From contig CANCPF010000020.1 of assembly GCA_947379975.1 (NCBI GenBank), positions 1 to 32,000 of the forward strand: a stretch of DNA of 32,000 bases. Direction: 5' to 3'. Positions within the stretch are counted from its first letter, which is position 1, and every line of letters begins with the position of its first letter. The notes under the pieces were generated by a model. That model was not told where the DNA came from. It worked only from the letters and a program-made list of their open reading frames with translations, and did not search any database. This document shows, piece by piece, positions 3,101-27,936 of the stretch. This stretch comes from Methylophilaceae bacterium (GTDB taxonomy: Bacteria; Pseudomonadota; Gammaproteobacteria; Burkholderiales; Methylophilaceae). A program made the translations under genes and the position numbers.

Positions 3101-3110
3101 AAATAGATAA

Positions 3111-3707: not shown

Positions 3708-5081
3708 ATGCCTGAAAAAGTCGAAACTACCTATCAAATCCTGCCTCGTGAATTGATTGTTTATCAGCGCGGAGATAGTGATGTTTGGCAATGCCGTCTC
3801 AAAGTGGACAGCAAATGGTTTTCTAAAACCACAAAAGAGCGTGATCTAAATAAAGCCATAGAACGTGCTAAGCGTTTGTTATTTGAAGCGCAACTTCGTA
3901 AAGAATCAAACATTCCCATAGTCACTAAAAAATTCCGTGACATAGCAAGGCTTGCCAAGCAGCAGATGCTTGACGAGCTAGCTAATCCTAAAATGAAAGC
4001 GCCTGTTTCATTTAATCAATACATCAAGATTATTGATGATTATTTGACTCCATTCTTTGGTAATAAGAATATTGATGGCATCAATTTTGAAGCGTTGGAT
4101 GAGTATGAAATTTGGCGCACTAAAGAAATGGGCAAAGCACCTGCCTACAGCACTGTACGCAAACACAACGTCACATTAAATAGAGTATTTGATAAGGCTG
4201 TTGAAAAAGGTTACATCACCCAATCAAGCAAACCCAAGCTTGAAACCAAAGGGCAAAAGTCTACTGAGTATGCAACGTTTGATGTCACGGAAGTTAATGC
4301 AGTGCTGGGTAATTTTCCAAGTTGGATTGCTAACACCAAGAATCAAGAAAAGCGCGAACAACGCGAGTTGTTATATGACTATGTACGTGTGCTCCTTGAC
4401 ACAGGAGCACGCCCGGGCAAAGAGTTATTGGATCTCCAATGGAAGAACATTAGGTGCAGAATTGCTGTCAGTGATGATGTCATTCGTCAGGTGGATGAAG
4501 AGGGTAATGTCATTGAAATGACGCATGAAGGTTTAGATGATGCAGGTGAATCGAATCCATTAACAAAATGGGAAGCCACAGTTTCGATGTCAGTGTATGG
4601 CAAAACCAAAGACAGAATTGCGAACGGATTTGATGCTACGTTTAATGTGCTTAAAGAGATTGTTGCTAGGAATTATCCCAACACAGAATTAACTCTGAAA
4701 AAGCTCACTGAAGCGAATGATGAAAGGTTTGTGTTTAGAACACGATCTGATAAAGAGCCCAGCAGCTTTAATCATCTGTTTGATCGTTACCTTGATGAAC
4801 ATAGCTTACTAATCGATCGTAATACGGGTAGAAAACGTGTTTTTTATAGCTTGCGAAGTGCATATGCGACAACAGTGATGAATATGGATCAAGTGCCTAT
4901 AAGAGACTTATCTAAGCAGTTAGGTAATTCTGTTGGAATTATCCAGAAGCATTATGATAGGGCTACTGGGGATGCTATCGTTGAAAACGTCAGAGCACCT
5001 AATGCTAGAAAAGCGTTGTTTAATACAGACTCAGTTGCTGATATCTATAAGTCCAAAAAAAATAATATTAAGAACAAGTAA
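3708..5081 (+). CDS. int: Tyrosine recombinase / island integrase
   Basis: 457 aa. Catalytic-domain signatures LLDTGARPGKELLDLQW (Arg I), FYSLRSAYAT (box II) and GIIQKHYDR (catalytic Tyr). Sits next to a tRNA at an island end. Confidence 0.9.
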   Translation: MPEKVETTYQILPRELIVYQRGDSDVWQCRLKVDSKWFSKTTKERDLNKAIERAKRLLFEAQLRKESNIPIVTKKFRDIARLAKQQMLDELANPKMKAPVSFNQYIKIIDDYLTPFFGNKNIDGINFEALDEYEIWRTKEMGKAPAYSTVRKHNVTLNRVFDKAVEKGYITQSSKPKLETKGQKSTEYATFDVTEVNAVLGNFPSWIANTKNQEKREQRELLYDYVRVLLDTGARPGKELLDLQWKNIRCRIAVSDDVIRQVDEEGNVIEMTHEGLDDAGESNPLTKWEATVSMSVYGKTKDRIANGFDATFNVLKEIVARNYPNTELTLKKLTEANDERFVFRTRSDKEPSSFNHLFDRYLDEHSLLIDRNTGRKRVFYSLRSAYATTVMNMDQVPIRDLSKQLGNSVGIIQKHYDRATGDAIVENVRAPNARKALFNTDSVADIYKSKKNNIKNK

Positions 5082-9611: not shown

Positions 9612-10649
9612 TTTGTTCTCCTTTTTGAACACATTTTGTTATTAGTATTTTGTTTTCAGTTGAAAGAAATTCCTATCTATTTTGTAAATATTGAAACCAA
9701 ATAACTATCAATGACTTAGCTGTGGTTCGGCCTCTTTGAACACAAAATAGTACAAATGTGTTGAGACGTTTAATAGGGTTTATGGATGTACTAATACCAA
9801 ATGTTTCATTACTAGTATTTAGTGAGGAGTTGGCTTTACTTTGATTATTTCAGGTGACTTCACTTAAATCTGAAATCGATCTATTTGAGCATTACCTGAG
9901 ATTAATATTGGTTTGATGGGAAGTGATTGCATACACATAGTATTAAAGCGAACACGTTCGCTTGTTCTTCGCTTGCGCTCATCACATTTTTTCTTTATGT
10001 GATTGTTATTTAAAACTTCATAGCTCTTCATAATTGGATAGATGAATTATTGATGTGTTTTTCTGTTTTTCCCATTTAGTAGGAAGAATAAGCCACGCCC
10101 TTTTACAGGGCATGGTCTTGAGTACACCTTTTAGTGAGGTATCCAAACAACTGATATACACACAACTTGAATTAACAAGTAAGGCAGGTTTTGCGGTCTC
10201 CTTTTACGTGCTCGTCTTACGCAACATATCTATCGCCTATATCAGAAGCTTGTTTAGATATGTTTGTGGGCTAAATGTGGCGTTCCCACTCACTTTCAGC
10301 TTATCCATTCGCGATAAGCCTACATTACGTATTACTACGCAACTAACCATATACAACATTACAAACGTTACAGCACAGTGGTGCGTCGTTTAAGGCATCC
10401 ATAAAGGGTAGTGTAATGAAGATGAGTAGTAAGTGACTCAATTTGCTTACCGTCACGCATTTAAGAACGGATTTCGCAGCACTATGATAATCGGCGTGCC
10501 AACCTTAACCTTACTTGTACACTTATTTATACTTGAACAGTAACAACCAAGATTAAATGTGGTTCTTGTTCAAGATTGGCCAAAAGAGGTTGTCCAGACC
10601 CTAGATCAGATCATATTGTTGTGTTGCCTTAACTAAATGGAGATAAATC

Positions 10650-11093
10650 ATGGCAACACTTAATACGCTTAAACTCACTGATGCAAAGAAACCAAAAGCA
10701 CTAGCACCGATTGTGCATCGTAGGAATAAGTTGATTGATAAACTATGGGAGCAGTTACAGCTAGCACGTGCTAAGCAAGCAGGTAATGAATATGCACCCT
10801 TAAAAGATAAACGCATGAAGGATGTAGATGGTATTACCAGATCCATCCAAGTACCTAAACGCATTAAGCCTTGGTGGTTCATAGCAGACAATGGCAAGCT
10901 TTGCCTATCGATATACTATGGCGCTAAAACATTAGAGCTTGCTAAAGGAAAGTCTGCAGCTGAAGTGTCCAACATGGATGAAGTAATTGATGTACTGGAA
11001 TTGCTCAAAGTTGAAACGGCTGCAGGTACATTTGATGCGGCGATTGAAACAGCCAGTGGGGCTCTGCGCAGTAACTTTAAACAAACAGTTTAA
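10650..11093 (+). CDS. Hypothetical protein
   Basis: 147-aa ORF with TGGAGA upstream of the ATG. Followed by a 27-bp palindrome. Confidence 0.65.
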   Translation: MATLNTLKLTDAKKPKALAPIVHRRNKLIDKLWEQLQLARAKQAGNEYAPLKDKRMKDVDGITRSIQVPKRIKPWWFIADNGKLCLSIYYGAKTLELAKGKSAAEVSNMDEVIDVLELLKVETAAGTFDAAIETASGALRSNFKQTV

Positions 11094-11379: not shown

Positions 11380-11556
11380 ATGCGCTTCTATGAATTCATG
11401 ACTCCACGTATTAAACCTCAAAAGCCACTCAATGCAGAACAGGCAAGACTAAGAAATCTCAAATATCAAATAAAAAGAAGTAAAGATGCATTGAAGGCTG
11501 AAAAAGCTAGGCAGAAGATCAAAGCAGGGCAACAGTCACTATCAAATATTATTTAA
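11380..11556 (+). CDS. Hypothetical small basic protein (weak call)
   Basis: ATG at 11380 (the track uses TTG at 11362). No clear Shine-Dalgarno sequence. Lys/Arg-rich. Confidence 0.25.
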   Translation: MRFYEFMTPRIKPQKPLNAEQARLRNLKYQIKRSKDALKAEKARQKIKAGQQSLSNII

Positions 11557-11974
11557 AAGCATTATGGTAGATAAGTGTTGCTGTACCTGCTAATTTCTCT
11601 AGTTCGTTAACTATATCAGCAAAATCATTATCATTTAAATTGGCAGCTAAAAACATAACGGGCTTGTTGCTTTGTATAGGAGTTATATCGAACAGATATC
11701 CATCTGGATCTTGAATTACAGAATGAGCAAAAAACTCGATATGCTCTAATTTTGATTCACTTTTTTCAAATATCCAACCATATATAATCTTATGGCTAGA
11801 ATTTGATTTTAAAAAACCACGAGTGTTTTCATGACAATTTCTAGCTAGACTTAATTGCCCATCTATCTCTACCTGCTTAAATGTTAAGCTCCCAGATTCG
11901 TTTATTCGACTAAACAAATAAGAAGAATACTTTCTTAAAGCATCTAATGTTAATTCATTAGGCAGCGAGTACAT
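11549..11974 (-). CDS. Hypothetical protein, last gene of the TerY-P operon
   Basis: 141-aa ORF, 18 nt downstream of the Sel1-repeat gene on the same strand. Confidence 0.6.
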   Translation of the reverse strand: MYSLPNELTLDALRKYSSYLFSRINESGSLTFKQVEIDGQLSLARNCHENTRGFLKSNSSHKIIYGWIFEKSESKLEHIEFFAHSVIQDPDGYLFDITPIQSNKPVMFLAANLNDNDFADIVNELEKLAGTATLIYHNAFK

Positions 11975-11992
11975 ATGTATAAAAACATTTAC

Positions 11993-13198
11993 CTAATTGG
12001 AATAAATTTTTATTACTTGAACGGATTGCTCCAAATGGCCGCACCATTTTTTAATGCGTTTGTCCTTACTTTTCATCCCCTCATTTGCAAAGACTAATGC
12101 CGTATCAATCTGATTTATGTTTCGATAATAATCGCCAAGTAAACATGATGATCTTGCATCTCCATTTTTTGATTTGGCTTTTAAGTAATCTAGAAATTCA
12201 GATTGACTTGCGGGCATTCTGTTTTTTTCAGACATCCATTCTTTATATGGTAGCGCATCGAACCTTCCGTTCTGCTCAGTCCAATAATCGTAGATCATTA
12301 AAAATCTTTCTGCGTCATCAGAAGTTTTGGCAGTGAATTCAAATTGTCCCGGATAAAAAAAACTGTAGAAAATTAGATTGTACATACCAAACCCACTCCC
12401 GTAGTTGATCGCTTTATTAAATTGCTCGGTGGCTCTCTTAAGATCAACCTGAGTGCCAATTCCTCTCTCGTAAAAGAGGCCAAGATTATTTATAGCGTTT
12501 GGCACTGACTTATCATCGCTGGCATACTCGAATAATTGTTTAGCAGTCGTCCTTTTAGCTATTTCTGGACTACTAAGCCCAATATATGCATAGTTAACTT
12601 TACATGCCCAGCCACCATCCTGAATACATTTTTCAAATAATTCGATACCTTTATTAGGATTAAAGAACGCGGAATTTGGTTCTAGCAACTTAGAGGCATA
12701 AAATCCAGTAGATTTAGGACGATCGAAAACCTTAGAGCAATATTCTCTTTCTTTACTTTCATTTTTTAAAACACTCTCTTTACCACCATAAATATCGCAA
12801 AATTTATATTCAATAAATTGCTTGTCATCTTCGTTAGCTTTTTTATAAATACCAACGAGTTTTTCAACCCAAAATTTGGCTTTTTGCTCGTCAATGCTAA
12901 CTCCATTAACCCCTTGACTATACTTAATTATAAGAAGAGCATTTGCTCTGATGTCTCCTTTTTTTGCCAAATCTGATAACAAAGGGAGTGCATCTGGCCC
13001 TCTATAGGAATTGATTAGAATATTAGCGAGATCGAGTTTATCTTCATTATCTATTTTTTTAGAAATAGGCTCATGATTTGCTATTATGTAATCCATACCC
13101 TTTTCATCAAAAATATCTTTTAATTTTAATGTGGTTGCGCCAGCATAAAATGGGGCGATAACTACTAAAACGATAATAAGCTTGAATAAGTTTTTCAT
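11993..13198 (-). CDS. Secreted Sel1-like repeat (SLR/TPR) protein
   Basis: N-terminal signal peptide MKNLFKLIIVLVVIAPFYAGA. Sel1-type repeats, for example AINNLGLFYERGIGTQVDLKRATEQFNKAI. Confidence 0.8.
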   Translation of the reverse strand: MKNLFKLIIVLVVIAPFYAGATTLKLKDIFDEKGMDYIIANHEPISKKIDNEDKLDLANILINSYRGPDALPLLSDLAKKGDIRANALLIIKYSQGVNGVSIDEQKAKFWVEKLVGIYKKANEDDKQFIEYKFCDIYGGKESVLKNESKEREYCSKVFDRPKSTGFYASKLLEPNSAFFNPNKGIELFEKCIQDGGWACKVNYAYIGLSSPEIAKRTTAKQLFEYASDDKSVPNAINNLGLFYERGIGTQVDLKRATEQFNKAINYGSGFGMYNLIFYSFFYPGQFEFTAKTSDDAERFLMIYDYWTEQNGRFDALPYKEWMSEKNRMPASQSEFLDYLKAKSKNGDARSSCLLGDYYRNINQIDTALVFANEGMKSKDKRIKKWCGHLEQSVQVIKIYSN

Positions 13199-13217
13199 TC
13201 AATTTTCCAGTTAATTG

Positions 13218-15239
13218 TTATTTTGCTTCTAGCTGCTTGATCTGCGTATTTATACATTTATTATATGCAGCAGGCCCATTAATAAATTTATCTTCTGAAC
13301 AATTGATTTCAACCCTCTTTTTCTGTTCTTCAGTGAGTGAATCTAAAGCCAAATTGCTCGTTTGCTGATTTAACTTCTTAAGATGATTGAGCATGCATTG
13401 ATCATATGAGTTTTTACCGGCAAATGTAGACTGTGTACAAGCTGAAGTAATGGAGTCAAACTCGCCTTTATTTAGCGTTGATAGCTGTGATTTTATAAAG
13501 TCGTCTTTACCTGCTTTTGGATTCGTAATAATTGCTGATTTTTTATTTTTGCTTATAGCTTTACTATCTGAGCCTTTAGAATCTAATTCCCGTTCAAGAA
13601 GAGTTATTTGATCTCTATATTCTTCGGCGTAATTTATCCAAAGACTTTCATTAAGCTGTTTTTTTGCCGCTTCAATATACTCTCTGGCTTTAAGATAATT
13701 GTTTGTTTTTAAGTATATTCTTGCTAAGGCAGTCTCAGTCTGAGCACTGTGGTGGTGATTCATTAGAGCCTTTTCATACCATCCTATTGCCTCAAATACA
13801 TTTTTATCTACACCCCAGCCTCTTTCATAAAGCATCCCAATATTGCTAGCGCCCTCCATGTGCCCAAGGTTATATCCATTTAAATTTAATTCATATGCTT
13901 TCTTATAATCATGAAAGCTATTGTTAGGATCCATTAGGCGCCACCCTTCATTCACCACTTGTCTTGCGGTAGCAGAAGGGGCATCAGGATCTATAGCAAT
14001 CAGAGTGCTTGGTGAGTATTCGGTAGGGGCTTTTGGTTTATCAAAGATAGGGATTAATATTATTAGAAAGGCAGCGAATAAAAACATAAGCAACACGATT
14101 TTGAAATCCTTACGTGGTTTAGTACTTGGTGTTACTATATTTTTCGTAAGGAGGGGTATGATTGTTTTATTCGAATTTGGTTTAAAATCTTTCAAGCTTT
14201 GCAGATAGCAAGTAGGACACTCTTTACCTTTGAATCTCATGTGAGCAATGTTTAAAGGCTCTTTATCACATCTAACTAATGACTTTTCTACCAAAAGCTT
14301 TTCAAGATGATTTGCCCATTTTTCTGCCGAAGGCCTTTCATCAAGCTTTCCTATAAATGCTCTATCAAATAGCTCTCTGGTTTTGTTATCCCATAAAAAA
14401 TGGATACTTTGAGGTCTTGGTTTGATGCTCAGGTTCGGCTGAATAGCATGCGGATATAGCCCTGCCGCAGCTTTTTCATCATTAGTCGCAATCCCTTCAT
14501 CGTCTACAAGGATGCCTTGAAACGGATGAGTGCCATTATTTAAAAGCTGAAACAATATTACAGCTAAGGCATATCTATCCTGATTCTCACCTAAATCTTT
14601 TGGTGATATCTTTCCTCTAAAAGCCTCTGGAGAAATGTAATCTGTAGAAATTAATTCCGCTGGGAATCGACTACTTTCATTGGACTTCTTGTCAGCTACT
14701 GAAAAGCCATCGCAATCCACCAATGAAACAATATGTGTTTGCCTGAATACTCTTATGTTCTGTGGCTTAAGGTCAATGAAGTAATGCTTGTTTTTATGTA
14801 GGGCAGCTACAATTAATGAGAGATTTTTTGCAATTTCTAACTTGTATGAGAATGCCACCTCATCTGGAGCATTTAGTTTTTTGAATAAAACTTGATCATA
14901 AAAATAATCTAAAGAAAAAGAGTCATGAAGGTCGACAAGTGGCATTAAATAACCAGCCGTCACTCCATGCTCATCTTTTAGGGTAGCAAAAGGCCAGGCT
15001 ATTTGTGGGTATGTCACTCCAGCAAAACTAATATGAATATCATCAGGTTTATTAGACAACATTGCCCTGATTTTGGGCTCATCTACCTTCTTATTGGCAT
15101 GATAGACCTTTGCCGCTACCACCTCAGATTCAAACTCTACTTTGTAAATGACAGCGGTAGCGCCTTTGCCTAGTTGATTGGTTGGGCTTATATCTACTGC
15201 GACTTTATGATTGCTTGTGTCATGAACGAAGTATCTCAA
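13218..15239 (-). CDS. Membrane-spanning Ser/Thr protein kinase with extracytoplasmic Sel1-repeat and Cys-motif C-terminal region
   Basis: Kinase motifs: GKGATAVIYKV (G-loop), VAAKVY (Lys), FIDLKPQNIRV (catalytic loop), VDCDGFS (DFG-like), ISPE (APE-like). TM helix IVLLMFLFAAFLIILIPIF. Sel1 repeat NIGMLYERGWGVDKN. TTG start overlaps the PP2C stop (TTGA). Confidence 0.9.
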   Translation of the reverse strand: MRYFVHDTSNHKVAVDISPTNQLGKGATAVIYKVEFESEVVAAKVYHANKKVDEPKIRAMLSNKPDDIHISFAGVTYPQIAWPFATLKDEHGVTAGYLMPLVDLHDSFSLDYFYDQVLFKKLNAPDEVAFSYKLEIAKNLSLIVAALHKNKHYFIDLKPQNIRVFRQTHIVSLVDCDGFSVADKKSNESSRFPAELISTDYISPEAFRGKISPKDLGENQDRYALAVILFQLLNNGTHPFQGILVDDEGIATNDEKAAAGLYPHAIQPNLSIKPRPQSIHFLWDNKTRELFDRAFIGKLDERPSAEKWANHLEKLLVEKSLVRCDKEPLNIAHMRFKGKECPTCYLQSLKDFKPNSNKTIIPLLTKNIVTPSTKPRKDFKIVLLMFLFAAFLIILIPIFDKPKAPTEYSPSTLIAIDPDAPSATARQVVNEGWRLMDPNNSFHDYKKAYELNLNGYNLGHMEGASNIGMLYERGWGVDKNVFEAIGWYEKALMNHHHSAQTETALARIYLKTNNYLKAREYIEAAKKQLNESLWINYAEEYRDQITLLERELDSKGSDSKAISKNKKSAIITNPKAGKDDFIKSQLSTLNKGEFDSITSACTQSTFAGKNSYDQCMLNHLKKLNQQTSNLALDSLTEEQKKRVEINCSEDKFINGPAAYNKCINTQIKQLEAK

Positions 15240-16243
15240 TTAAAAAATCCCTTGAAGGATAAGTAGCTTAATCTAATAAGATAAAAAACGATCACACCTA
15301 AAGTAATGAAAAATGTGTACTTGGCGAAGTGCCCTAACAGATAAGCCCATTTAGTCTCTGCCACGATTGAGTGCTTACCTTGAGTCACATCAGCTTTTAG
15401 GTATTTCTTATCAGTATTAACATGTTCAATCTTTTTAGGTTCTTTAACGATTGATTTGTCTTCAGATTCGTCAATGTGAACTCCTCTTCTAAAAGCCAAA
15501 CAAATTGTTTTATCATCGCCTGTTAATTTATCTGCCTGAATGTCAGCTAAGATTGATTTGAGTTTGTCATTTCTTCCAGTCTGACTCTTCTCTTTCTCGA
15601 TCATATTAAATAGAGGAACGACGAAACCCCATTTAGGCTCACTATCGTTAACCATCGATAGTGAAGTACCTCCGTCAGTACCAAGCATTATCCAGTCTAC
15701 TGAGTTGATTGGAATGATTCTTAAACGCTTAATCCAGTCAGCTTCAGTAATAAAGTATGTTTCATTTGAATATTCGCCATTTTCTGGTAAGGAAGAGAAG
15801 TAATCTGCTTTTATATTGGTAGAAATAGACTTACCACCAAAAGCAGCGCCATCTCCAATATGAATTAGAAAACCCCCAGTTTCACCAATCAGACAAGCTA
15901 ACAAAGTACAGTGATAATTCCTTAGGTTGTCGCTTTTAGCTATTGTTCTTAGCTCATAACGAGCCTTTAGAATAGATTCGACTACATAGTCATTTATCCA
16001 AGCCCCTGGCTCTCTTTTTTCCAATTCTTCACTGAGTGAAATCAGTGATTTTGAGAAAAATTCCGTTACAAAACTCGAGCTGATTTGAGAGTGCTTGGCA
16101 GAGCCTGCTCCATCACTGACTACAATAGCAAGCCACTTCCCATCTGCACTTTCTGATACGAAGCTTGAGTCCTGACAAGGCAAACCAGTTTTAACATGGT
16201 TCTGCCCAGTAACAGATGAATATGAATAAACCCAATTCGTCAT
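15236..16243 (-). CDS. PP2C-family protein phosphatase with C-terminal TM anchor
   Basis: Motifs AIVVSDGAGSAKHS and IMLGTDGG. C-terminal hydrophobic helix FFITLGVIVFYLIRLSYL. Confidence 0.85.
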   Translation of the reverse strand: MTNWVYSYSSVTGQNHVKTGLPCQDSSFVSESADGKWLAIVVSDGAGSAKHSQISSSFVTEFFSKSLISLSEELEKREPGAWINDYVVESILKARYELRTIAKSDNLRNYHCTLLACLIGETGGFLIHIGDGAAFGGKSISTNIKADYFSSLPENGEYSNETYFITEADWIKRLRIIPINSVDWIMLGTDGGTSLSMVNDSEPKWGFVVPLFNMIEKEKSQTGRNDKLKSILADIQADKLTGDDKTICLAFRRGVHIDESEDKSIVKEPKKIEHVNTDKKYLKADVTQGKHSIVAETKWAYLLGHFAKYTFFITLGVIVFYLIRLSYLSFKGFFN

Positions 16244-16930
16244 TTATAAACCTACATTTCTCCAAGGGTCTGTCGATGGCAACTGAACCGTTTCGCCAGG
16301 TCTACTGCGACTGGCAGCACTCAAACTAGAACTCAGCCAAACAAACAACTCCTTGAATTTCATCCCTTCAAGCATCAGAGGTGGTTTGGTCGAGATTTGT
16401 GCCAATTTTGACAAGTCTGCACCTTCAACACCAATTGAAAAAATCTCCACTTTTTTAGTGGATTCTGCAGATTTACATTCTCTAATTGCAGCATTCCACT
16501 CGTCTGATGAATCAGTTGGTTCCCCATCAGAAATCACCATAATCCAAGGCCTAGTGTAAGAGATTCCAGCAGCCTTAAGGTTAGATTTGCCATCTTCAAC
16601 TAACTGAAGGGCAATTCGAAGACCTTTACCTAGGGGAGTTGAGCCTCCGGCTCTAATTGAAAAGGAGGAGAAATTGACAGCATCTGTCCAATCCATCATT
16701 ATTTCAGCGTCGTTTGTGGGGCCACCAACAGTTACGATTGATATCTGAACGCGGCTTAATGCAGCGTCATCTGCTCTTAAAGCTTCCTCTAATGCATGCA
16801 CTCCAACATTCAATTCTTCCATGCGAGTTTTGCCAGAGGATGTTCTGCTTTCCATAGAGCCTGACGCGTCTAGAACTAGTACACAAGGCGTTCTTTGGTT
16901 TGGATTACCACTAAAATCTATTGCACTCAT
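16244..16930 (-). CDS. vWA-domain protein (TerY-like)
   Basis: MIDAS motif VLVLDASGSM, downstream ISDGEPTD. Abuts the PP2C gene (TAA then ATG). Confidence 0.9.
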   Translation of the reverse strand: MSAIDFSGNPNQRTPCVLVLDASGSMESRTSSGKTRMEELNVGVHALEEALRADDAALSRVQISIVTVGGPTNDAEIMMDWTDAVNFSSFSIRAGGSTPLGKGLRIALQLVEDGKSNLKAAGISYTRPWIMVISDGEPTDSSDEWNAAIRECKSAESTKKVEIFSIGVEGADLSKLAQISTKPPLMLEGMKFKELFVWLSSSLSAASRSRPGETVQLPSTDPWRNVGL

Positions 16931-16943
16931 AAGCCACCATAAT

Positions 16944-17639
16944 TTAGTAAGTTGAATGATTAATTGCTGCTATAACAGCAAAGAGTAAGCACATAACAAT
17001 AAAAGATAATAACGCATATACAAAGATAGTCATGCCTGACTTCCCATTTACCCCTCTAACAACTACGGTGCATGACATGATGTCATGCAGTGTTTGTTTC
17101 TTTGCGGTAAATGGCTGCATAAAATATCCCAATCCCATGAGCAAGGCAGAAAGCCATCGACCAAAGTATCTTCCAACACCTTGACCTAAAGAAATTTGAC
17201 TGAAATTATAGTCAGTAACTTCGAGCCCTAGCCACTCTTTGCCAAAAGTGGCTCTTTTATTGCTCGACTCCATTAGCGAATGATAAAAAACCATAACTAC
17301 TATTCCAAGAAGATAATAGAAGGCGAGTGCTCTTGTGCCTGCTACATTTACTCCCTCTGTCGTGAGAATTAATCCGAAAACGAAGCCAATTAAAAGATTA
17401 GCTAAGCCACCAATGCAAGTGTCAATTGAAGCTGCTGCAAACCTCTCCCAAAAACCAGCATAAATATAAGCAACTGGAGTAGCAAGTGAAGATGTATTAG
17501 AAGGCAAAACAGTTTGAGCTGCTTTGGCTGCTTTTATTTGAACTGGCGTCTGACTAAAAATACGATGGCCACATTGTGGGCAAAATCGCATTGTTCCCAT
17601 TACTGAAGTACCACAACCTTCACAGTATTTGTCAGACAT
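16944..17639 (-). CDS. Zinc-ribbon plus RDD-family membrane protein
   Basis: N-terminal CEGCG...CPQCG. RDD-like WERFAAASIDT. Several TM helices. C-terminal TLHDIMSCTVVV. Confidence 0.8.
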   Translation of the reverse strand: MSDKYCEGCGTSVMGTMRFCPQCGHRIFSQTPVQIKAAKAAQTVLPSNTSSLATPVAYIYAGFWERFAAASIDTCIGGLANLLIGFVFGLILTTEGVNVAGTRALAFYYLLGIVVMVFYHSLMESSNKRATFGKEWLGLEVTDYNFSQISLGQGVGRYFGRWLSALLMGLGYFMQPFTAKKQTLHDIMSCTVVVRGVNGKSGMTIFVYALLSFIVMCLLFAVIAAINHSTY

Positions 17640-17654
17640 AGCTTGCTCCTTTAA

Positions 17655-18206
17655 TTAAATATCAACTGATGACCAATCAGCATCTTTGTATTTTTCATTT
17701 CTAACTGCGATTGCTTCTGCTATACAAACATAAGCATCTTCTAAGATGCTTTGATCTCGGTAAAGATCTGGATTCTTATCAAAACGACCGTAGGATTGTG
17801 GGGAAAAACTCCCGTTAGACAATATATAGAACCTAACCCATACATCACCTAGAGTGGCTTTTTTTGCTGAGAGATCAACAATCCAAGGAGCTGCAGGGCC
17901 ACCTCTCGATTTAACTTTCTTTATAATTTTTACCAACTCTTTTGAGCTCTCCATTTGAAGAAGTAGTTGGTTTTTCACTTGCTCAGGACTTAACAAGGCA
18001 ACTGAAAAGCCATCAGGCCTCCAAGGAAGTCCCATCTGATTTAGATACATCCAAGCGTTAATTACGCATTCTATAGACCTAGGAATTTCCACTTCGCCTG
18101 ATAGCCAGCGCTGAACAGTCCTTACATTCATATCAAGCAGTTGAGCAAGCTCGAGGAAATTCAGTCCTAAAGTTACTAAAGATTCTCTTAATAATGATGA
18201 TTGCAT
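17655..18206 (-). CDS. HTH (XRE-like) domain protein, first gene of the TerY-P operon
   Basis: N-terminal LELAQLLDMNVRTVQRWLSGEVEIP helix-turn-helix. The rest is unknown. Confidence 0.7.
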   Translation of the reverse strand: MQSSLLRESLVTLGLNFLELAQLLDMNVRTVQRWLSGEVEIPRSIECVINAWMYLNQMGLPWRPDGFSVALLSPEQVKNQLLLQMESSKELVKIIKKVKSRGGPAAPWIVDLSAKKATLGDVWVRFYILSNGSFSPQSYGRFDKNPDLYRDQSILEDAYVCIAEAIAVRNEKYKDADWSSVDI

Positions 18207-20633: not shown

Positions 20634-20806
20634 GATCAATTCGTAGAAATCTGAGTTTAATGAGCACCGTTGACAGAATAACAGTAAGATGATGGATGGG
20701 TGGTATGAAACTCGCAAGTGAGGGATTGGCTAGGCCTTGGCAGATGAAGCAGGGGAATAAAAGCCTGAATTACACGACCAGTTGGGATGAATTGGTTAAG
20801 GTTTGA
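20634..20806 (+). pseudogene. Decayed 3' remnant of a umuC/rumB-like (Y-family polymerase) gene, copy 1
   Basis: Reads LMSTVDRITVR-stop-WMGGMKLASEGLARPWQMKQGNKSLNYTTSWDELVKV-stop. Parallels copy 2 and the UmuC C-terminus (from memory, ...W.MK....SP.YTT). Has an internal stop and no 5' part. Confidence 0.7.
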
Positions 20807-20855
20807 ATTAATGTATAGTTGCGCAAATAATAAGTAATGAAGAAAAGAGAAAGTA

Positions 20856-21764
20856 ATGAAAATAAAACTATATGGGATCAATATACGAAGCGGCGAGAAT
20901 CCCATGTTTTCAGACTTTATGGACTACCTTATAACTGCCGAAACTTTAGGTTTTGATTATGCGGGCTTTAAAAGATTTTTATACGTTGTAAAAAATCAGG
21001 ATCATTATTCTGGTTTGTTGATTACAACAAAAGATCAGAAAAAGTTTATGGAGCTCTCTAACGAACAAGGGGAAATTACCATTACGGCTAGAGATGTAAC
21101 TGAAGGCGCTGAGTTGGCAGAATTTAATTTTTTTATAGTTGATGCCATAACAGGGCGAGGTCTTTATCAGCACTATTACCATTCGTGTGCATTCAATCAG
21201 TTCGGTTTTATTTTGAAGTATTTTTTTGAAAAATTTAAGCAGATTAAAATAGCTGAAGAGTCTAATGGATTAACAAATAAGCGTGATTTAGCCGTAGTGA
21301 AGAAGAAGTACGCAAATCCTCTTGCATGGGGATTTTTTATGCGTGAAGAATCTTTTGATAACTTACTTGCAAGACTCGCGAAAATTAAATCGTTCGACTT
21401 TACATTTTCCACGGTAACTGTAAGTGATCCAGTCTTTCGGCCATTGAGTGGGCTGTGTAAGCAAGTTTCACAAAAATATAGCTTTGCTAAAAACTCTGTA
21501 TTGAGCACAGTTATATCTGCTATAAAAGATTCTGTAAGTGCTTTAGGAATTAATGATGGCAAAGTAATTGGTGTTGACGAGAATGGGCAGGATGTTGATG
21601 TATTTTTGACCGATAATTTAGAGTCTTTTGCAGAGTGGGATTATGATGCAGTAGCTGAAAAGATGCAGAGACTGAATCCTAGAGAGTTCAATGATGCATG
21701 GTTAACTAATGTGATCCTGAAAAAATTTAATGATCAAAGAGAATTGTTCTCGATTTCATCTTAA
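20856..21764 (+). CDS. Hypothetical soluble protein (302 aa), first gene of a two-gene module
   Basis: ORF with a purine-rich stretch upstream of the ATG. No recognisable motif. The next gene starts 6 nt after the stop. Confidence 0.7.
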   Translation: MKIKLYGINIRSGENPMFSDFMDYLITAETLGFDYAGFKRFLYVVKNQDHYSGLLITTKDQKKFMELSNEQGEITITARDVTEGAELAEFNFFIVDAITGRGLYQHYYHSCAFNQFGFILKYFFEKFKQIKIAEESNGLTNKRDLAVVKKKYANPLAWGFFMREESFDNLLARLAKIKSFDFTFSTVTVSDPVFRPLSGLCKQVSQKYSFAKNSVLSTVISAIKDSVSALGINDGKVIGVDENGQDVDVFLTDNLESFAEWDYDAVAEKMQRLNPREFNDAWLTNVILKKFNDQRELFSISS

Positions 21765-22837: not shown

Positions 22838-23365
22838 TTATCTAGGCGCTTTAATTGGTTTTCCTGAAAGCCTGTTAGCTAAAATGGTATAGAGTGAAAT
22901 CTTTTTTGTTTGCTTGCGAGTTCTTCTTCCGTCTGGTGCAAATGCGCTATTTACAACTAAATGTGCAATATTTGGTTTGGCTATTTTAATCTCAAAATAG
23001 ACTTCGTATTCTTGCTTCACACCGTTTTGCAAAGTTAGTTCAACGATAAAAAAATTCCCATGCCCTGTATGCATGCAGGATCGATGGTTTAAACCCTCTA
23101 TGATATTTGGCAACTGTTTTGATAATTCATATCGTTGAAAATCAAACAGCCTCGTCTCTCTAGTGTCGCTATAACGCAGAGGATTCACATTTGCAATTTT
23201 AGAATTTCCTTCTGTGAAGCAGTGAAGACCATAACAAACTTCAACAGTGAAGGTTTTTGCTATCTGCGCTCCCTTTGCTGGCTGTTCATACACTACGATT
23301 GTGGGATGAAGGTGAGATAGATCATATTCACATCTATTATGTTTAAACACTTCCCATTTAATCAT
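22838..23365 (-). CDS. Hypothetical protein (175 aa)
   Basis: ORF followed by a strong terminator. No recognisable motif. Confidence 0.65.
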   Translation of the reverse strand: MIKWEVFKHNRCEYDLSHLHPTIVVYEQPAKGAQIAKTFTVEVCYGLHCFTEGNSKIANVNPLRYSDTRETRLFDFQRYELSKQLPNIIEGLNHRSCMHTGHGNFFIVELTLQNGVKQEYEVYFEIKIAKPNIAHLVVNSAFAPDGRRTRKQTKKISLYTILANRLSGKPIKAPR

Positions 23366-23652
23366 TTAATCACCTAATACTCTTCTTCATTATTGCCGAG
23401 ATTATAACCTTTTGAAGAAAGGTAATTATCGCAGCTTGCTACGTGTTCAGAATAAGTTGTCAGTTTCTTCAAGCTCGATGAGTCTTAATGCAGCAACAGT
23501 ATGACGATCTTATCACCTAGATCTATTTGATGGCGCTGACAATTAGCTAAGATTGCTTTTGGGCTCTAAAACATCTCTGCAAACGTCTTTAATTGTCTAA
23601 TGAAACATGACTCTAATTAATAGATAATAATAATCACTGAATGAGGTATCAA

Positions 23653-23718
23653 ATGAATCAAACTGTAAGAGTATTTACCGCTGAATTTAAGCAAAGCGCG
23701 AGATCTATACCAAAATAA
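23653..23718 (+). pseudogene. Possible N-terminal fragment of an IS3-family OrfA transposase
   Basis: MNQTVRVFTAEFKQSARSIPK-stop. The R.F(S/T)AEFK motif is typical of IS3-family OrfA N-termini. Only 21 codons. Confidence 0.3.
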
Positions 23719-23761
23719 TTTATAACGCATCATCAATCAATAGTTCAAAATTGGAGAAATT

Positions 23762-24082
23762 ATGAATAATGAAGCTTCTGTAGAAAAATTCAAAAGCCAG
23801 CTTGAGTTAATAAACCTCAGTCTTGACGAGTTGCGAGAAGAGAGAAAAGAATTAAAGTCAGCAGCTTGGAATTGCGATATCCGTGAGGCTATGGATAGAA
23901 TAATTAAAGCTAAATCATATGAAATAACTAACAATGCAATCCGAGAAAGATTAAATTCACCGAATTTAAGTATGGATGATCTTGTCGCGACTCGGGCATT
24001 TGCTCTTGTTGCAGGAGTTGGTCCTGATGTTATTGATGAATTAAATGAGGCTATAAAATCAATTCAAGGAAAAGAAAAATGA
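23762..24082 (+). CDS. Hypothetical protein, predicted coiled-coil (106 aa)
   Basis: TTGGAGAA upstream of the ATG. The stop overlaps the next start (ATGA). Confidence 0.6.
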   Translation: MNNEASVEKFKSQLELINLSLDELREERKELKSAAWNCDIREAMDRIIKAKSYEITNNAIRERLNSPNLSMDDLVATRAFALVAGVGPDVIDELNEAIKSIQGKEK

Positions 24083-24567
24083 GTAAATCAGATTCAATGT
24101 TATTAGCCTGTGCAAAATTTGTTAAATTTGTGCTGAGTAATAACTTTACAGAATTAGAAAGAAAACTCTTCGCCAAGATGTTGGTAGAGGGTTTCAGAAA
24201 AGCTCATGATCAAGCAGAATCAGAATTTGGGAAGGGAAAGTTTTTGGGCCATCTGTATTGGACTAAAAATGCTCTTGAGCTCTTGGGTCATAACTTAGCA
24301 ATAAAAAAATCCTTATCTGATAATCTAAGGCATGAACATTCAGTGCCATTGATTTATCTGGCTGAAAATATTCTTTTTAAAATGCCGAAGGTAGCAACTG
24401 AATTAGATATTTTTGAAAAAATAAAATATTTTGGAATAGTTGTAATCATGACCAGAGATGAAGATTCGGCGTTGAAATTGAAAAGCAAGATGCCCGATAA
24501 TTGGGATCGGCAAGATATTTTTGCAAGATATGACGATCTTAAATCACAGATTGTTAAAAGAGATTAA
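24079..24567 (+). CDS. Hypothetical protein (162 aa) with an LRHEHSVP motif
   Basis: Translationally coupled to the upstream ORF. H-E-H followed by P is reminiscent of His-Me finger / DUF1524-type nuclease motifs. Speculative. Confidence 0.6.
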   Translation: MSKSDSMLLACAKFVKFVLSNNFTELERKLFAKMLVEGFRKAHDQAESEFGKGKFLGHLYWTKNALELLGHNLAIKKSLSDNLRHEHSVPLIYLAENILFKMPKVATELDIFEKIKYFGIVVIMTRDEDSALKLKSKMPDNWDRQDIFARYDDLKSQIVKRD

Positions 24568-24601
24568 TTCAGATAATCACAATAAGCGCCGGAACAACTA
24601 C

Positions 24602-24847
24602 GCTAAGGCTGGAGTAAGCTTGGGCGACTTAATACCAAGAACTTCAGCGCAGTTTGATATGTTTGCGTCAGGGCAATCAACCAGTCGAAGTACAAGTCTC
24701 ATGAGCACCATCGACCGAATTAACAGTAAGATAGGGCGTGAGTCGATTAAGTTAGCCAGTGAAGGCTTTGCTATGCTGTGGAAGATGAAGCAGGGGAATA
24801 AGAGTCCTAATTTCACGACTAGGTGGGACGAGTTGGTGGTGGTTTGA
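24602..24847 (+). pseudogene. 3' remnant of a umuC/rumB-like gene, copy 2
   Basis: NNYAKAGVSLGDLIPRTSAQFDMF...LMSTIDRINSKIGRESIKLASEGFAMLWKMKQGNKSPNFTTRWDELVVV. Compare the E. coli UmuC C-terminus from memory (YQKAGVMLGD...AQLNLF...LM..MD.LN...GR...WQMK...SPRYTT). No N-terminal polymerase domain is present. Confidence 0.8.
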
Positions 24848-26534
24848 ACAAAATCTCTATGATTTTTAATGAGTTCAAGAGATCAAAACTGATTGCTTCA
24901 ATATGTTTGTGAGGGGTTTTATGTTTACTTAAGAGAGAACACTTTATGGCTTGCGCCTCCTCGCCAGATGAGTGGGCGGCTAGTTTTGCTCTTAAATTAT
25001 TGAGATCTAAAAGCGGATTGACAGCCTCATCAATTACATCAGGTGGAGTGTTTTTTAAATTTAAAATTTCTTTAAGTAACTTGATTGATCCGATGCTAGG
25101 CTCTAATACAAGATTTAATTCTTTGGCAATTCTCTTCAAATAACTTTTTTCAATGCTCTCGACAACAACTTTTGCTAAGAGCAATATCGTGTCAATCCAA
25201 ATTTTTTGAGAGTTAGTTAATGGATAATGAATTTGGTTAATAAGGCTTGGCTCATGCAATTTAAACCATTCATAATTTGAAGCGCCTAAGTGAAATGCAT
25301 AGTCTTTTAGGTCACGTAAATTATCTGGCTCACTATCAAATTCTCCTAAAAAACTGTTTAAGAGTGTTCTTTTTGAAATGGCGCCTTTAGGATTCTCATT
25401 AAAACTTTTCCAATAAACTTGCTCTTGAAAAGGAAGGTCGGCTAAATCGCAAATCAATGTGTGAATCTGACCAGCCTCATTGAAATCGTATTCGCGAAGA
25501 TACCAAGAATTTCTGCATGAAATTGATCTATTTTCTAAGGTATATTTTTCTGGATCGGACTTGTACTTGTCTAGGACAGATGCGTTGAAGAAAACTGGTG
25601 AAGTTTGAAATGGTAGATTTGAATCTGGCTGGAAGTATGACGCTGTTGCTTTGGGGTCGCAGCTAGATTCAATAGTCTGATTGTTCTTAAAGTCATTTAT
25701 TATGAAAGTTTCATATTTTTTTGGCTTATCTTCTTTAGCCTTTAGTATTGCACCGAGCTCTTCAGAGGTGAATTTTGGATAAACAATTTGGCATCCACGG
25801 ATGAATCCAGCCCCATCATTTTGACTGTGAAATTTGTAAAAAATATTGGTATTATCATCTGAGATACTTTCACATTCAGTGTGTTGCCATGCACTGAAGC
25901 CCTTGGGAATAAAGGTGTAATCGAATACTTGTAAAAGTACATTATCCGTTGCGGCCATCTGCAACTCTATAATTTCACGATTAATAGATACAACTGAATC
26001 TGAAAATGATTTACCTGAATCCTGTTGGACTTTAATTACACTTTCAATATCGCCATTAGTATCTAATCTACACCAAGAATTCTTTTCTCTAACCCAGTGT
26101 AAATCGTGTGCAAATAATAAAAACTGAGGCACTTCATAATAATTCTTATTTGGTAATCCATCGAAATGTCTCCGGTGGATAAGGTGTTTTGTGCCCTCAA
26201 TCTCTACACCACTGATTCTAAGTGATGGTTCGTTAAACTCGACTCTAGGTGGTTTCCCTCCGCCATATACCAACCCGCATTGCCAAGTATCATTTCCAAT
26301 ATCCCATTCAGGAATAGTTTTGAAATCTATCTTGCTAATTTCAGACTTCGGTATCAAAAAGGATTTAATAAAAACTTGTCCTTCATTGAAGCTCGACGCT
26401 TCAAGAAGTAAAGATCTATCTGTTTGTTGAAGTGATAATAATTCTAGAAAAAGTTCTTTTTCAAATTGCTCAACTCCATGGGAGTGCTGTTCATATTGAG
26501 GATACGAAAGATTGATTATCGAACTAGCACTCAT
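24819..26534 (-). CDS. Large hypothetical protein (571 aa) with a C-terminal helical region carrying a HEPN-like R-x5-H motif
   Basis: LNNLRAKLAAHSSG (R515...H521, nt 24992-24972). The rest is unrecognised. The last 9 codons (KPPPTRPT) are antisense to the umuC remnant. Confidence 0.7.
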   Translation of the reverse strand: MSASSIINLSYPQYEQHSHGVEQFEKELFLELLSLQQTDRSLLLEASSFNEGQVFIKSFLIPKSEISKIDFKTIPEWDIGNDTWQCGLVYGGGKPPRVEFNEPSLRISGVEIEGTKHLIHRRHFDGLPNKNYYEVPQFLLFAHDLHWVREKNSWCRLDTNGDIESVIKVQQDSGKSFSDSVVSINREIIELQMAATDNVLLQVFDYTFIPKGFSAWQHTECESISDDNTNIFYKFHSQNDGAGFIRGCQIVYPKFTSEELGAILKAKEDKPKKYETFIINDFKNNQTIESSCDPKATASYFQPDSNLPFQTSPVFFNASVLDKYKSDPEKYTLENRSISCRNSWYLREYDFNEAGQIHTLICDLADLPFQEQVYWKSFNENPKGAISKRTLLNSFLGEFDSEPDNLRDLKDYAFHLGASNYEWFKLHEPSLINQIHYPLTNSQKIWIDTILLLAKVVVESIEKSYLKRIAKELNLVLEPSIGSIKLLKEILNLKNTPPDVIDEAVNPLLDLNNLRAKLAAHSSGEEAQAIKCSLLSKHKTPHKHIEAISFDLLNSLKIIEILFKPPPTRPT

Positions 26535-26537
26535 TTT

Positions 26538-27371
26538 TTACTCTTGGATAGAAATAGCGTATTTTTTTGGAATTTTTACTGCTCGTTTTACTTTGATTTC
26601 TGGAGCATATTTTAAGACTAATTTTTTTATTTTTTCATAAGGCCCATCACAACCAACAATTATTGAGGATATTGCCCCTTTAGGGAGTGTAAGAAGCCCA
26701 TTTGGATCAAAATGGTGGCCGCTTAGGAGAGGTTCATCAATTTCAGAGGATAGGATTAATCTATACTCTTTCTCATAACTCCAAACATCTGATTTAATTA
26801 GTAAGGGTGATAAAAGATCTCTTGTGCTTTCGGAGTATGTCTTAAGTGATGGATAATTAGTTTTATATCTGCATTTTAAGGCGGTAAACAACATCGATTT
26901 CTTTAAATCATATTCAATACATATACCAGTATGAGAATTTGCGTAGTGAGACCACATAAGTAAATTCTCTGGATTTGGACTCAAGCAATATATTCTATAT
27001 TTGGATTTTCTAACTACATCAACAATTGCCTCTGAAATTTGGTCTATGACGTGCTTGCTTCTTTGGGGGTCATTTAAAATTTTTCTTATCTCTTCATTTT
27101 TAGCTTGGGCAGGAAATAATTTATTGTAGGTTTTTATCGCCCATTTTTTGTGTAGATAATTCCCGATAAGGCTATTAGAAATAGTGTTGTCGAATTGAGG
27201 GCTACAATCCCATGGGTCGTTAAAAGATGAGGGTAAAGAGCAATAAATAGAGTTTGTTTTTAATAACTCTCGTAGACGTCCGAATTTGTATGGTTGCCAA
27301 TGATAGAGATACTTTAGCCCATTATTATGAGCATTATCTTCACCCAATGCTCGGCGGATAAATTTCTTCAT
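26538..27371 (-). CDS. DUF2971-family protein
   Basis: Motifs SSFNDPWD, LLMWSHYANSHTGICIEYDL and DVWSYEKEYRL are characteristic of DUF2971. Sits 3 nt upstream of the 571-aa gene. Confidence 0.8.
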   Translation of the reverse strand: MKKFIRRALGEDNAHNNGLKYLYHWQPYKFGRLRELLKTNSIYCSLPSSFNDPWDCSPQFDNTISNSLIGNYLHKKWAIKTYNKLFPAQAKNEEIRKILNDPQRSKHVIDQISEAIVDVVRKSKYRIYCLSPNPENLLMWSHYANSHTGICIEYDLKKSMLFTALKCRYKTNYPSLKTYSESTRDLLSPLLIKSDVWSYEKEYRLILSSEIDEPLLSGHHFDPNGLLTLPKGAISSIIVGCDGPYEKIKKLVLKYAPEIKVKRAVKIPKKYAISIQE

Positions 27372-27607
27372 TTGGAAACCTTTTGAGATTTATGATCGCA
27401 TTGTAAGCCTTTTAAACTCTCTCAGCACTTATCTCTGTAGTGAGGAAATCGAGGGATTCGTCCAATTGAAAACTATAGTGAAATTTACGCTTTTGGACTT
27501 TCAAGCCCATCGCTAAAATCAGAAGCTGGTTGGGGCACTTTTTAGCACGGTTCAATCAATACCATTTTTTGACTCAAGGGTAGTGCGCTCTAGAACAGAG
27601 CCTCGAC

Positions 27608-27622
27608 ACTTTTAATCCGTTG
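27608..27622. repeat. Degenerate internal copy of the att core plus tRNA 3'-half start
   Basis: ACTTTTAATCCGTTG versus ACTCATAATCCGTTG at attR (13 of 15 identical). Confidence 0.3.
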
Positions 27623-27882: not shown

Positions 27883-27892
27883 ACTCATAATC
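27883..27892. repeat. attR core (ACTCATAATC)
   Basis: Exact direct repeat of 2664-2673. Confidence 0.8.
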
Positions 27893-27928
27893 CGTTGGTG
27901 CTGTGTTCGACTCACAGGGGGGCCACCA
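27884..27928 (+). pseudogene. 3' half of the resident tRNA-Ile2(CAU): anticodon loop to CCA
   Basis: CTCATAA-TCCGT-TGGTG-CTGTG-TTCGACT-CACAG-GGGGGCC-A-CCA. The acceptor strand is complementary to the 5' half at 2631-2637. Confidence 0.85.
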
Positions 27929-27936
27929 GTAACGAT

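Follow-up and report, generated by a model that had tools for sequence, protein, structure and literature searches.

The two genes considered here lie near the right-hand end of a genomic island in a Methylophilaceae bacterium, within a stretch of 32,000 nucleotides (contig CANCPF010000020.1 of assembly GCA_947379975.1, positions 1 to 32,000 of the forward strand) that is referred to below as the window. Both are encoded on the minus strand. Gene A (26538-27371) specifies a 277-aa protein of the DUF2971 family, identified from its open reading frame (ORF) and its Pfam and PADLOC matches and, on published grounds, a predicted ADP-ribosyltransferase-like effector, and gene B (24819-26534) specifies a 571-aa member of a large unannotated family of proteins of about 570 aa, as judged from its ORF and homologue searches. 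A preliminary description of this DNA had reported both ORFs and a separation of 3 nt between them, and the junction indeed reads GAG TAA aaa ATG, with the AAA spacer between the stop codon of A and the ATG of B at 26535-26537 (minus strand). Given this spacer and an AAGAG purine run just upstream, co-transcription and translational coupling of the two genes are likely. Each ORF has hundreds of full-length homologues, and neither can be put down to chance. Two closely spaced genes at an island's end do not by themselves make a two-gene system, and the chief item of interest is the B family, which is large, unannotated, found in defence-rich contexts and endowed with a strikingly conserved central module.

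A first search for homologues of B returned 227 sequences, and an exhaustive profile search extended the family to 2,011 representative clusters (E ≤ 1e-3), of which 1,477 pass a limit of E ≤ 1e-10 and 634 one of E ≤ 1e-30. Nearly all of these clusters were matched end to end, with a uniform architecture, and their source names all read 'hypothetical protein'. Searches of Pfam, NCBIfam and PADLOC gave no match to full-length B, to four segments of the profile consensus or to distant homologues (six and three sequences), and the representative accessions led to no paper in the searchable literature. Should the B family be confirmed as a defence gene, a function would be supplied for ~2,000 clusters now labelled as hypothetical proteins.

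In the AlphaFold (AF2) model of B, which has a mean predicted local distance difference test score (pLDDT) of 86.7, residues 40-360 are beta-rich and residues 405-563 all-helical. The chain starts with a beta-rich region, continues through a small central module of alpha/beta type and ends in a helical domain. All parts of B are read from the minus strand. The N-terminal region (residues 1-295; 25650-26534) is moderately conserved, with R122, E134, G161, F204, D205, G247 and D281 standing out. The central module (residues 296-398; 25341-25649) is the most conserved part of the family in an alignment of 110 sequences, with the consensus SPVFF..VLDKYK..ISCRN.W..N..GQ..LP..EQ.YWK.FNE.P. Altogether, 42 positions of B are at least 95% identical across the 110 sequences, 30 of them in this module and only four (L406, W446, R515 and H521) in the C-terminal domain. 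The profile consensus of the module has no Pfam match, and no recognisable nuclease or other catalytic motif was found in it. Its very strong conservation and its want of detectable relatives recommend the module for structural and biochemical study.

The C-terminal domain (residues 399-571; 24822-25340) is a candidate divergent HEPN domain, modelled on its own with a pLDDT of 93.1 and a predicted template modelling score (pTM) of 0.87. The preliminary description had pointed to an R-x5-H motif in a helical C-terminal region and had likened it to the HEPN RNase signature. This motif, R515-AKLAA-H521 (translation RAKLAAH; 24972-24992), is real and conserved. The preliminary description had named a lack of conservation of R515 and H521 as grounds for rejecting the idea, and the motif withstands this check: among homologues with as little as 27% identity, each of the two residues is present in 108/110, and plasmid homologues that are 23-28% identical to B retain the motif as well. 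Among the 110 sequences, the spacer from Arg to His comprises five residues in 96, six in ten and four in two. The residue that follows the Arg is Ser, Thr or Asn in 102/110, whereas B of the window itself has Ala.

A survey of the HEPN superfamily describes an Rx4-6H motif with a polar residue after the Arg, located at the end of helix 3 or in the next loop, together with an acidic residue in helix 2 (often as Ex3[KR]), an insert between helices 2 and 3 and, often, a kinked helix 4 (PMC3710099). The B family has the motif with its polar residue, and the models place it where the survey does, as A520 closes the helix 498-520, the loop opens with H521 and the next helix starts at 525. In the proposed assignment, helix 1 spans residues 405-418, helix 2 residues 443-460 (ending E459), a helical insert residues 463-493 and helix 3 residues 498-520. 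The last element would be a kinked helix 4 consisting of residues 525-538 and 541-563, broken at 539-540. The Glu at the end of helix 2, E459, is conserved in 104/110 sequences, and three more have Asp instead.

Several results weigh against the assignment to HEPN. The basic residue of the Ex3[KR] pattern is only partly conserved (Lys or Arg at +4, position 463, in 49/110 sequences and at +5 in 68/110). A Foldseek comparison of the C-terminal domain model with the PDB gave no match at E ≤ 0.001, the best having E 0.64. The HEPN entries 1wwp (E 3.6, probability 0.23, template modelling (TM) scores 0.37/0.49, root-mean-square deviation (rmsd) 5.2 Å) and 2hsb (E 3.3, TMt 0.35) rank below generic helical bundles, and among the 50 matches listed 1wwp has the highest TM-scores, the lowest rmsd and the highest probability. 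At the level of sequence, 20 C-terminal domains (E ≤ 10), the profile consensus and six divergent homologues had no match in the Pfam HEPN clan, and B is not joined to a recognised HEPN family by sequence or profile similarity. An hhalign comparison with a HepT-like family, which was built from an MNT-adjacent ORF in locus L174 and has the HEPN toxin 7ae9 as its top PDB match, gave a probability of 0.46% with the motifs unaligned; with one HEPN family tried, this is weak evidence. Furthermore, the strongest conservation lies in the central module and not in the C-terminal domain, so that the main active site could lie there, and the searchable literature holds no experiments on any member of the B family. 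Thus, from the preliminary reading of the C-terminus, the helical region and the position of the motif are borne out, whereas a significant HEPN fold or profile match was not found. That the C-terminal domain of B is a very divergent HEPN RNase is plausible on the combined pattern of motif and modelled helices, at roughly even odds.

A structural clue to the rest of the protein came from Foldseek with full-length B. The only high-probability match in the PDB was the terminase sensor Avs3 (8dgc_A; probability 1.00, E 8.7e-3, 245 aligned columns, TM-score 0.22, rmsd ~9 Å); the same query found nothing in BFVD, and sequence-profile searches of the PDB with full-length B and with its C-terminal domain gave nothing meaningful. 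Avs3 8dgc is not among the 50 matches listed for the C-terminal domain alone. Because the 245 aligned columns exceed the 177 residues of that domain, the resemblance falls largely in residues 1-395, and it probably lies in the N-terminal region or central module of the model. A central or N-terminal P-loop nucleoside triphosphatase (NTPase), as found in Avs/STAND sensors and in PrrC-type anticodon nucleases, is absent from B in terms of Pfam NTPase matches, and a Walker A-like motif was seen in 1/110 family members.

These findings also bear on a different view of the protein, which we hold to be unlikely, namely that B is a defence protein without a HEPN RNase. Its core would then be the module 296-398, possibly together with the N-terminal region, and the C-terminus would be regulatory or serve oligomerisation, with the Arg and His binding a ligand or partner. 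Such a division of labour would agree with the concentration of near-invariant positions in the central module, with the want of a significant HEPN fold or profile match and with a whole-protein resemblance to part of Avs3 that lies largely outside the C-terminal domain; moreover, some known helical bundles of HEPN-like form have no RNase activity (PMC3710099). However, it leaves the near-invariance of R-x(4-6)-H in an otherwise variable domain to be explained, along with its location exactly at the helix-3/loop boundary and the accompanying upstream acidic residue and polar residue after the Arg. The central module, for its part, offers neither a recognisable catalytic motif nor a family match.

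The genomic surroundings of B were surveyed in 80 loci from many phyla, with B homologues 27-47% identical to that of the window and flanks of up to 10 kb; as a positive control, the B query recovered the homologue in 80/80 loci. These surroundings are variable, and many are defence-related or mobile. In one locus, B sits inside a type I restriction-modification (R-M) operon, where it overlaps hsdS by ~3 nt on one side and is separated from hsdR by 4 nt on the other. In others, it adjoins hsdS, directly follows a type ISP R-M enzyme, comes after an integrase, or precedes a DUF1156 methyltransferase or an nSTAND NTPase. HsdR or HsdS homologues occur within 5 kb of B in at least five loci, and further immediate neighbours include MADS genes (mad3, mad5), HmaB, PifA, a KAP NTPase, AAA_21, integrases, transposases and housekeeping genes. 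On a Pseudomonas aeruginosa megaplasmid, a B homologue lies beside a CBASS operon. A homologue with 28% identity, on a Pseudomonas syringae plasmid, heads the cargo that follows the recombinase genes (GmtY/Z/X) of a gamma-mobile-trio (GMT) element, a class of element whose cargo is enriched for defence genes (bioRxiv 10.1101/2023.03.28.534373). No B homologue was found in 50,697 phage records.

With so many integrases, transposases and conjugation genes among these neighbours, B might be no immune gene at all and might instead serve the mobile elements that carry it, for example through addiction, anti-defence or the processing of DNA or RNA during transfer; the defence genes nearby would then merely share its mobility. 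B is the first cargo after recombinases both in the integrase-adjacent locus and in the GMT element, and no family member matches any PADLOC model, as would suit such a role. We nevertheless judge it very unlikely. The insertion of B between hsdS and hsdR, with gaps of only a few nucleotides, puts it where defence genes such as PrrC are typically found (PMC3710099), and B adjoins CBASS, type ISP R-M, MADS, Hma and PifA genes. Its absence from the phage records and the enrichment of GMT cargo for defence genes likewise argue for immunity. The defence context proposed in the preliminary description is supported both for B and for A, to which we now turn.

Gene A was rightly assigned to DUF2971, as it matches Pfam PF11185 with E 1.4e-9 and 39.6 bits against a cut-off of 22 bits, and the motifs that had been quoted for it are present: FNDPWD at residue 50, MWSHYANSHTGICIEY at residue 139 and WSYEKEYRL at residue 197. 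The PADLOC candidate PDC-S31 (model PDLC04990) matches residues 18-276 of 277 with E 3.2e-51. Pfam DUF2971 was matched by 36/36 members of the subfamily, and in a 36-sequence alignment spanning 33-87% identity, H24, FNDPWD (50-55), Y128, Y143 and E200-x-E202-x-R204 are invariant. The accompanying statement that DUF2971 has no assigned function is outdated, not only through the PADLOC candidate. A 2025 survey predicted DUF2971 to be an ADP-ribosyltransferase (ART) family, in which it noted kinship with DarT, AbiGi and Tox-ART-HYD1 and conservation of a Tyr and an ExE motif (PMC12522546), and a 2024 study validated Aristaios, a DUF2971 protein from a Lactococcus plasmid, as a single-gene abortive-infection antiphage system (PMC11381338).

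By analogy with the 2025 survey, H24, Y128/Y143 and E200-x-E202 would map to the His/Arg of ART motif I, the Tyr of motif II and the ExE of motif III, respectively (PMC12522546), and the residues that are invariant in the A subfamily are consistent with the ART assignment of DUF2971. A sequence-profile search of the PDB with the subfamily found nothing, which speaks against this assignment. From the published predictions (PMC12522546; PMC11381338), we infer that gene A encodes a DarT/AbiGi-like ADP-ribosyltransferase, and the DUF2971 annotation is corrected from 'unknown' to 'candidate ADP-ribosyltransferase defence effector'. Relatives of A are commonly carried by mobile elements, with 518 plasmid records and 12 phage records, SSU5-like phage-plasmids included.

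The preliminary description had treated A and B as a candidate pair, with synteny elsewhere as a test set in advance, and the pair fails it in both directions. No DUF2971 ORF was detected within 10 kb of B in any of the 80 B loci (phmmer with A of the window, E ≤ 10), and a hidden Markov model (HMM) built from 120 proteins of the DUF2971 subfamily found one marginal ORF only, with E 0.011, ~8 kb from B in a single locus (L028). Conversely, the B-family HMM (E ≤ 1) found no B-family ORF in 87 loci of the DUF2971 subfamily, 39 of which have at least 1.8 kb of downstream sequence. Neither family has a recurrent companion: clustering of all ORFs within 6 kb of B in the 80 loci yielded no recurrent neighbour family, and no recurrent partner gene was seen among the 87 DUF2971 loci. 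The co-occurrence across distant lineages that would mark a conserved two-gene defence system is therefore not seen for A and B.

Adjacency of A and B was found in near relatives only, in which A is 86.6-100% and B 90-100% identical to the window, with a spacer of 3 nt or, in the 88%-identical relatives, 7 nt. In blastn comparisons, the inherited block corresponds to 24594-27621 of the window at 88% nucleotide identity and comprises 250 nt upstream of A, both genes and the 3' end of umuC. The upstream portion (27372-27621, minus strand) is non-coding and is presumed to be the A-B promoter region; further 5' lies a terminator-like hairpin. A consensus promoter scan of the region found nothing above shuffle expectation. 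The relatives that keep both genes form one closely related group, so that a single evolutionary event is indicated, and A and B look, on these comparisons, like independent neighbours brought together by a lineage-specific event and not like an obligate or conserved pair. Against such independence, the 3-nt spacer and the joint inheritance imply that the two are expressed together, and a lineage-specific functional link may exist.

Pressed further, that link would make A and B a genuine recent two-gene system, in which, for instance, B senses infection and licenses or regulates the ART, or in which RNA cleavage and ADP-ribosylation are dual effectors under one promoter. Besides the short spacer (7 nt in relatives) and the fact that no independent promoter stands out, one may cite that the block made up of the upstream region and both genes has been inherited intact (88% nucleotide identity) within at least three different flanks. 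Two observations from other genomes lend further colour: a DUF2971 gene that abuts a 455-aa nSTAND1/AAA ATPase gene in an integrative and conjugative element (ICE), which suggests that DUF2971 can act as a plug-in effector, and B homologues elsewhere that also have tightly linked, lineage-specific upstream genes. We consider a two-gene system quite unlikely all the same, since there is no co-occurrence beyond the clade of at least 87% identity in either direction, each family overwhelmingly occurs without the other, and the conserved pairs trace to the one close group mentioned above. Moreover, the DUF2971 protein Aristaios works without a partner (PMC11381338), and in PADLOC the candidate PDC-S31 consists of a single gene.

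The ICE in question is represented by loci L095 and L096 (1710-6807; also L097 and L098), in which the DUF2971 gene is 40% identical and the ATPase is of the nSTAND1/AAA_16 type. It encodes TraU and other transfer proteins, and the DUF2971-ATPase gene pair adjoins SNase-umuD-umuC. Taken with the clade of the window, it places DUF2971 beside umuDC in two unrelated arrangements and indicates that DUF2971 can be operonic with a STAND-type ATPase.

As for B, the tightly linked genes upstream of it differ by lineage and are unrelated to each other and to DUF2971. For example, Brevundimonas locus L053 (8897-9808), like L075, has an ORF 34-37 nt upstream of the B homologue, residues 152-301 of which match PDB 4nqf 'Nucleotidyltransferase' with E 6.5e-32. 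In Pseudomonas (L049, L050, L054) and in L018/L045, the same slot holds further unrelated ORFs, 302-314 aa and 236 aa long. Two of the ~300-aa-class ORFs upstream of B homologues had no match. It seems that the closely linked gene which B acquires upstream varies from lineage to lineage. The ~300-aa ORFs gave no sign of a hidden partner common to B homologues, as they are unrelated between lineages and none is a DUF2971 protein. The idea that B is a DarG-like antitoxin for A was rejected, because B has no macrodomain (Pfam hmmscan, no match at E ≤ 1) and is autonomous elsewhere.

At its 3' end, B converges on a plus-strand ORF (24521-24847) that carries DUF4113, the C-terminal domain of umuC, and overlaps the last ~10 codons of B. 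The umuC 3' remnant itself, defined by the Pfam DUF4113 match (E 2.7e-21) and blastn breakpoints, occupies 24594-24847 on the plus strand and shares a 29-nt overlap with B. The preliminary description had raised the possibility that this remnant altered the native end of B, a possibility that the relatives contradict. In three of them (L087, L088 and L090), an intact umuC of 423-424 aa, accompanied by umuD in two of the three, converges on B with the same 29-nt overlap, and B is again 571 aa long. From the same overlap and length beside an intact umuC, it follows that the native end of B is unaltered by the remnant. A C-terminus created by the umuC remnant is thus ruled out. The length of 571 aa is typical of a family that ranges over about 555-590 aa; only the last ~8 residues of B exceed the family consensus, and model confidence there is low.

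Compared with the same three relatives, umuC of the window is broken at about 24593, ~225 nt from its 3' end, by an insertion of ~1 kb (23588-24593), beyond which umuC sequence resumes at 23587-23468 with 77% identity. The insertion carries two overlapping plus-strand genes, at 23762-24082 (106 aa) and 24079-24567 (162 aa). Neither has a family match apart from a weak PADLOC match of the 106-aa protein to capH (E 0.014). The insertion may be a small toxin-antitoxin-like or regulator-effector cassette that disrupted umuC. A second fragment, at 20654-20807, just 5' of a 302-aa ORF (20856-21764), shares 75% identity with the region at the 3' end of umuC (24695-24848), which suggests that another copy of umuC has decayed in the island or that recombination has left a scar there.

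The island that harbours these genes is ~25 kb long and of lower GC content, and is situated between an rpoD side and an M24 peptidase/ppc side, the window beginning with dnaG and rpoD and finishing with an M24 peptidase gene and ppc. A ~43-bp imperfect direct repeat (43-nt, 95% match) bounds the island, with its left copy at about 3062-3105 and its right copy, which marks the right island boundary, at 27885-27929 (plus strand). The repeat reads AATCCGTTGGTGCTGTGTTCGACTCACAG[A/G]GGGGCCACCA and looks like the 3' end of a tRNA, with T-arm, acceptor stem and CCA; neither site gave a match to a complete tRNA, a tmRNA or an Rfam family. In blastn, a near-identical contig (L082) departs from the window exactly at 27928. 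A and B are the final cargo inside the right repeat, and the term 'terminal cassette of the island', used in the preliminary description, is correct.

Other cargo of the island comprises two integrase-like genes, one of them (3708-5081) just inside the left direct repeat, and an operon of VWA, PP2C and Ser/Thr-kinase genes, among others. The operon (11549-18206, minus strand) comprises genes for a helix-turn-helix protein, a membrane protein of RDD/zinc-ribbon type, a VWA protein, a phosphatase (PP2C), a Ser/Thr kinase that bears Sel1/TPR repeats and a protein with Sel1 repeats, as well as a 141-aa ORF. Its combination of VWA, PP2C and kinase may resemble conflict systems of the 'TerY-P triad' type. 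A DUF6641 protein gene is present at 10650-11093 of the window and another at 10017-10457 of the 88%-identical relative L090, near the A-B-umuCD cassette; its presence in both hints that larger island parts are common to these elements. Also inside the island, a 175-aa protein (22838-23365, minus strand) matches NCBIfam YjaZ (stationary phase growth adaptation protein) below threshold, with E 7.7e-14 and 52 bits against a cut-off of 324 bits, and bears the precomputed Pfam annotation PF27200 YjaZ.

Taken together, these data suggest a working scheme for the locus. A and B would be transcribed from the conserved region upstream of A. A, with the ART fold and H-Y-ExE active site proposed in the literature, would transfer ADP-ribose from NAD+ to its target, a nucleic acid or a protein, and would stop the growth of the infected cell, as proposed for Aristaios. 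In B, the N-terminal beta-rich region and the module 296-398 may sense or bind an infection cue. The C-terminal domain would dimerise like other HEPN enzymes, with R515 and H521 cleaving RNA in a metal-independent manner, and this cleavage would result in abortive infection or dormancy. The sensor-effector proposal for B is made by analogy with HEPN nucleases embedded in R-M systems, such as PrrC, and with the single-chain sensor-nucleases Upx and GAPS1.

The reading that we prefer for the locus as a whole is that A and B are each an autonomous defence module of one gene, that they became adjacent in one lineage and that they are now co-transcribed, without forming a conserved two-component system; we regard this as having an even chance of being right. 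A bolder proposal concerns B itself, which may found a widespread stand-alone antiphage family (at least 634 clusters at 50% identity, in many phyla), with a faintly Avs3-like beta-rich region and an extremely conserved ~100-residue module driving a cryptic, highly divergent HEPN RNase; in this lineage, the protein would also have come to share an operon with a DarT-like ART. We put this forward tentatively, as it seems somewhat more apt to fail than to hold. If true, it would describe another route by which the sensing of infection is coupled to an RNase, without an NTPase and with a new sensor fold, and B would extend the known theme of single-protein abortive-infection nucleases.

Comparison with characterised and candidate systems places A closest to Aristaios and PDC-S31. 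Like these, A contains DUF2971, has an end-to-end PDC-S31 match and belongs to a subfamily without a conserved partner gene. Aristaios is longer (316 aa against 277 aa), and A is likened to it through the DUF2971 domain and description; PDC-S31 is a computational candidate only. Unlike either, A is probably co-transcribed with B in this lineage. With DarT of DarTG, A shares a family relationship, as DUF2971 is significantly similar to DarT, AbiGi and Tox-ART-HYD1 (PMC12522546), and the A subfamily keeps H24, Y128/Y143 and E200xE202. In contrast to DarTG, no DarG-like macrodomain antitoxin stands beside A, B being without a macrodomain match in the Pfam hmmscan.

For B, the comparison leads to several quite different systems. 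PrrC and RloC provide a parallel in position and motif, because a B homologue occupies the same hsdS-hsdR slot of a type I R-M operon and the C-terminal R-x(4-6)-H is near-invariant. Conversely, B has no ABC or P-loop NTPase and no similarity to Pfam or PADLOC HEPN models, and most B genes lie outside R-M operons. Within the wider HEPN superfamily (HepT/DUF86, DUF4145, AbiJ, AbiV), the likeness comprises the motif, its position at the end of helix 3, the upstream Glu, the helical insert and the kinked last helix, whereas a statistically supported fold or profile match is missing and B has extra N-terminal helices (399-440) before the putative core.

Resemblances of another kind connect B with sensors. 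Avs3, the STAND terminase sensor (PDB 8dgc), is the sole high-probability Foldseek match of full-length B, largely outside the C-terminal domain; it differs in that the TM-score is 0.22 and the rmsd ~9 Å, and B has neither a STAND NTPase nor a PADLOC Avs match. Upx and GAPS1, single-chain sensor-nucleases without an NTPase, are PD-(D/E)xK nucleases unrelated in sequence to B, and Upx is ~2x its length. In overall plan they are comparable, as B also combines a large unannotated N-terminal region with a small C-terminal candidate nuclease-type domain in one gene that is carried in defence or GMT islands (PMC13601566; bioRxiv 10.1101/2023.03.28.534373).

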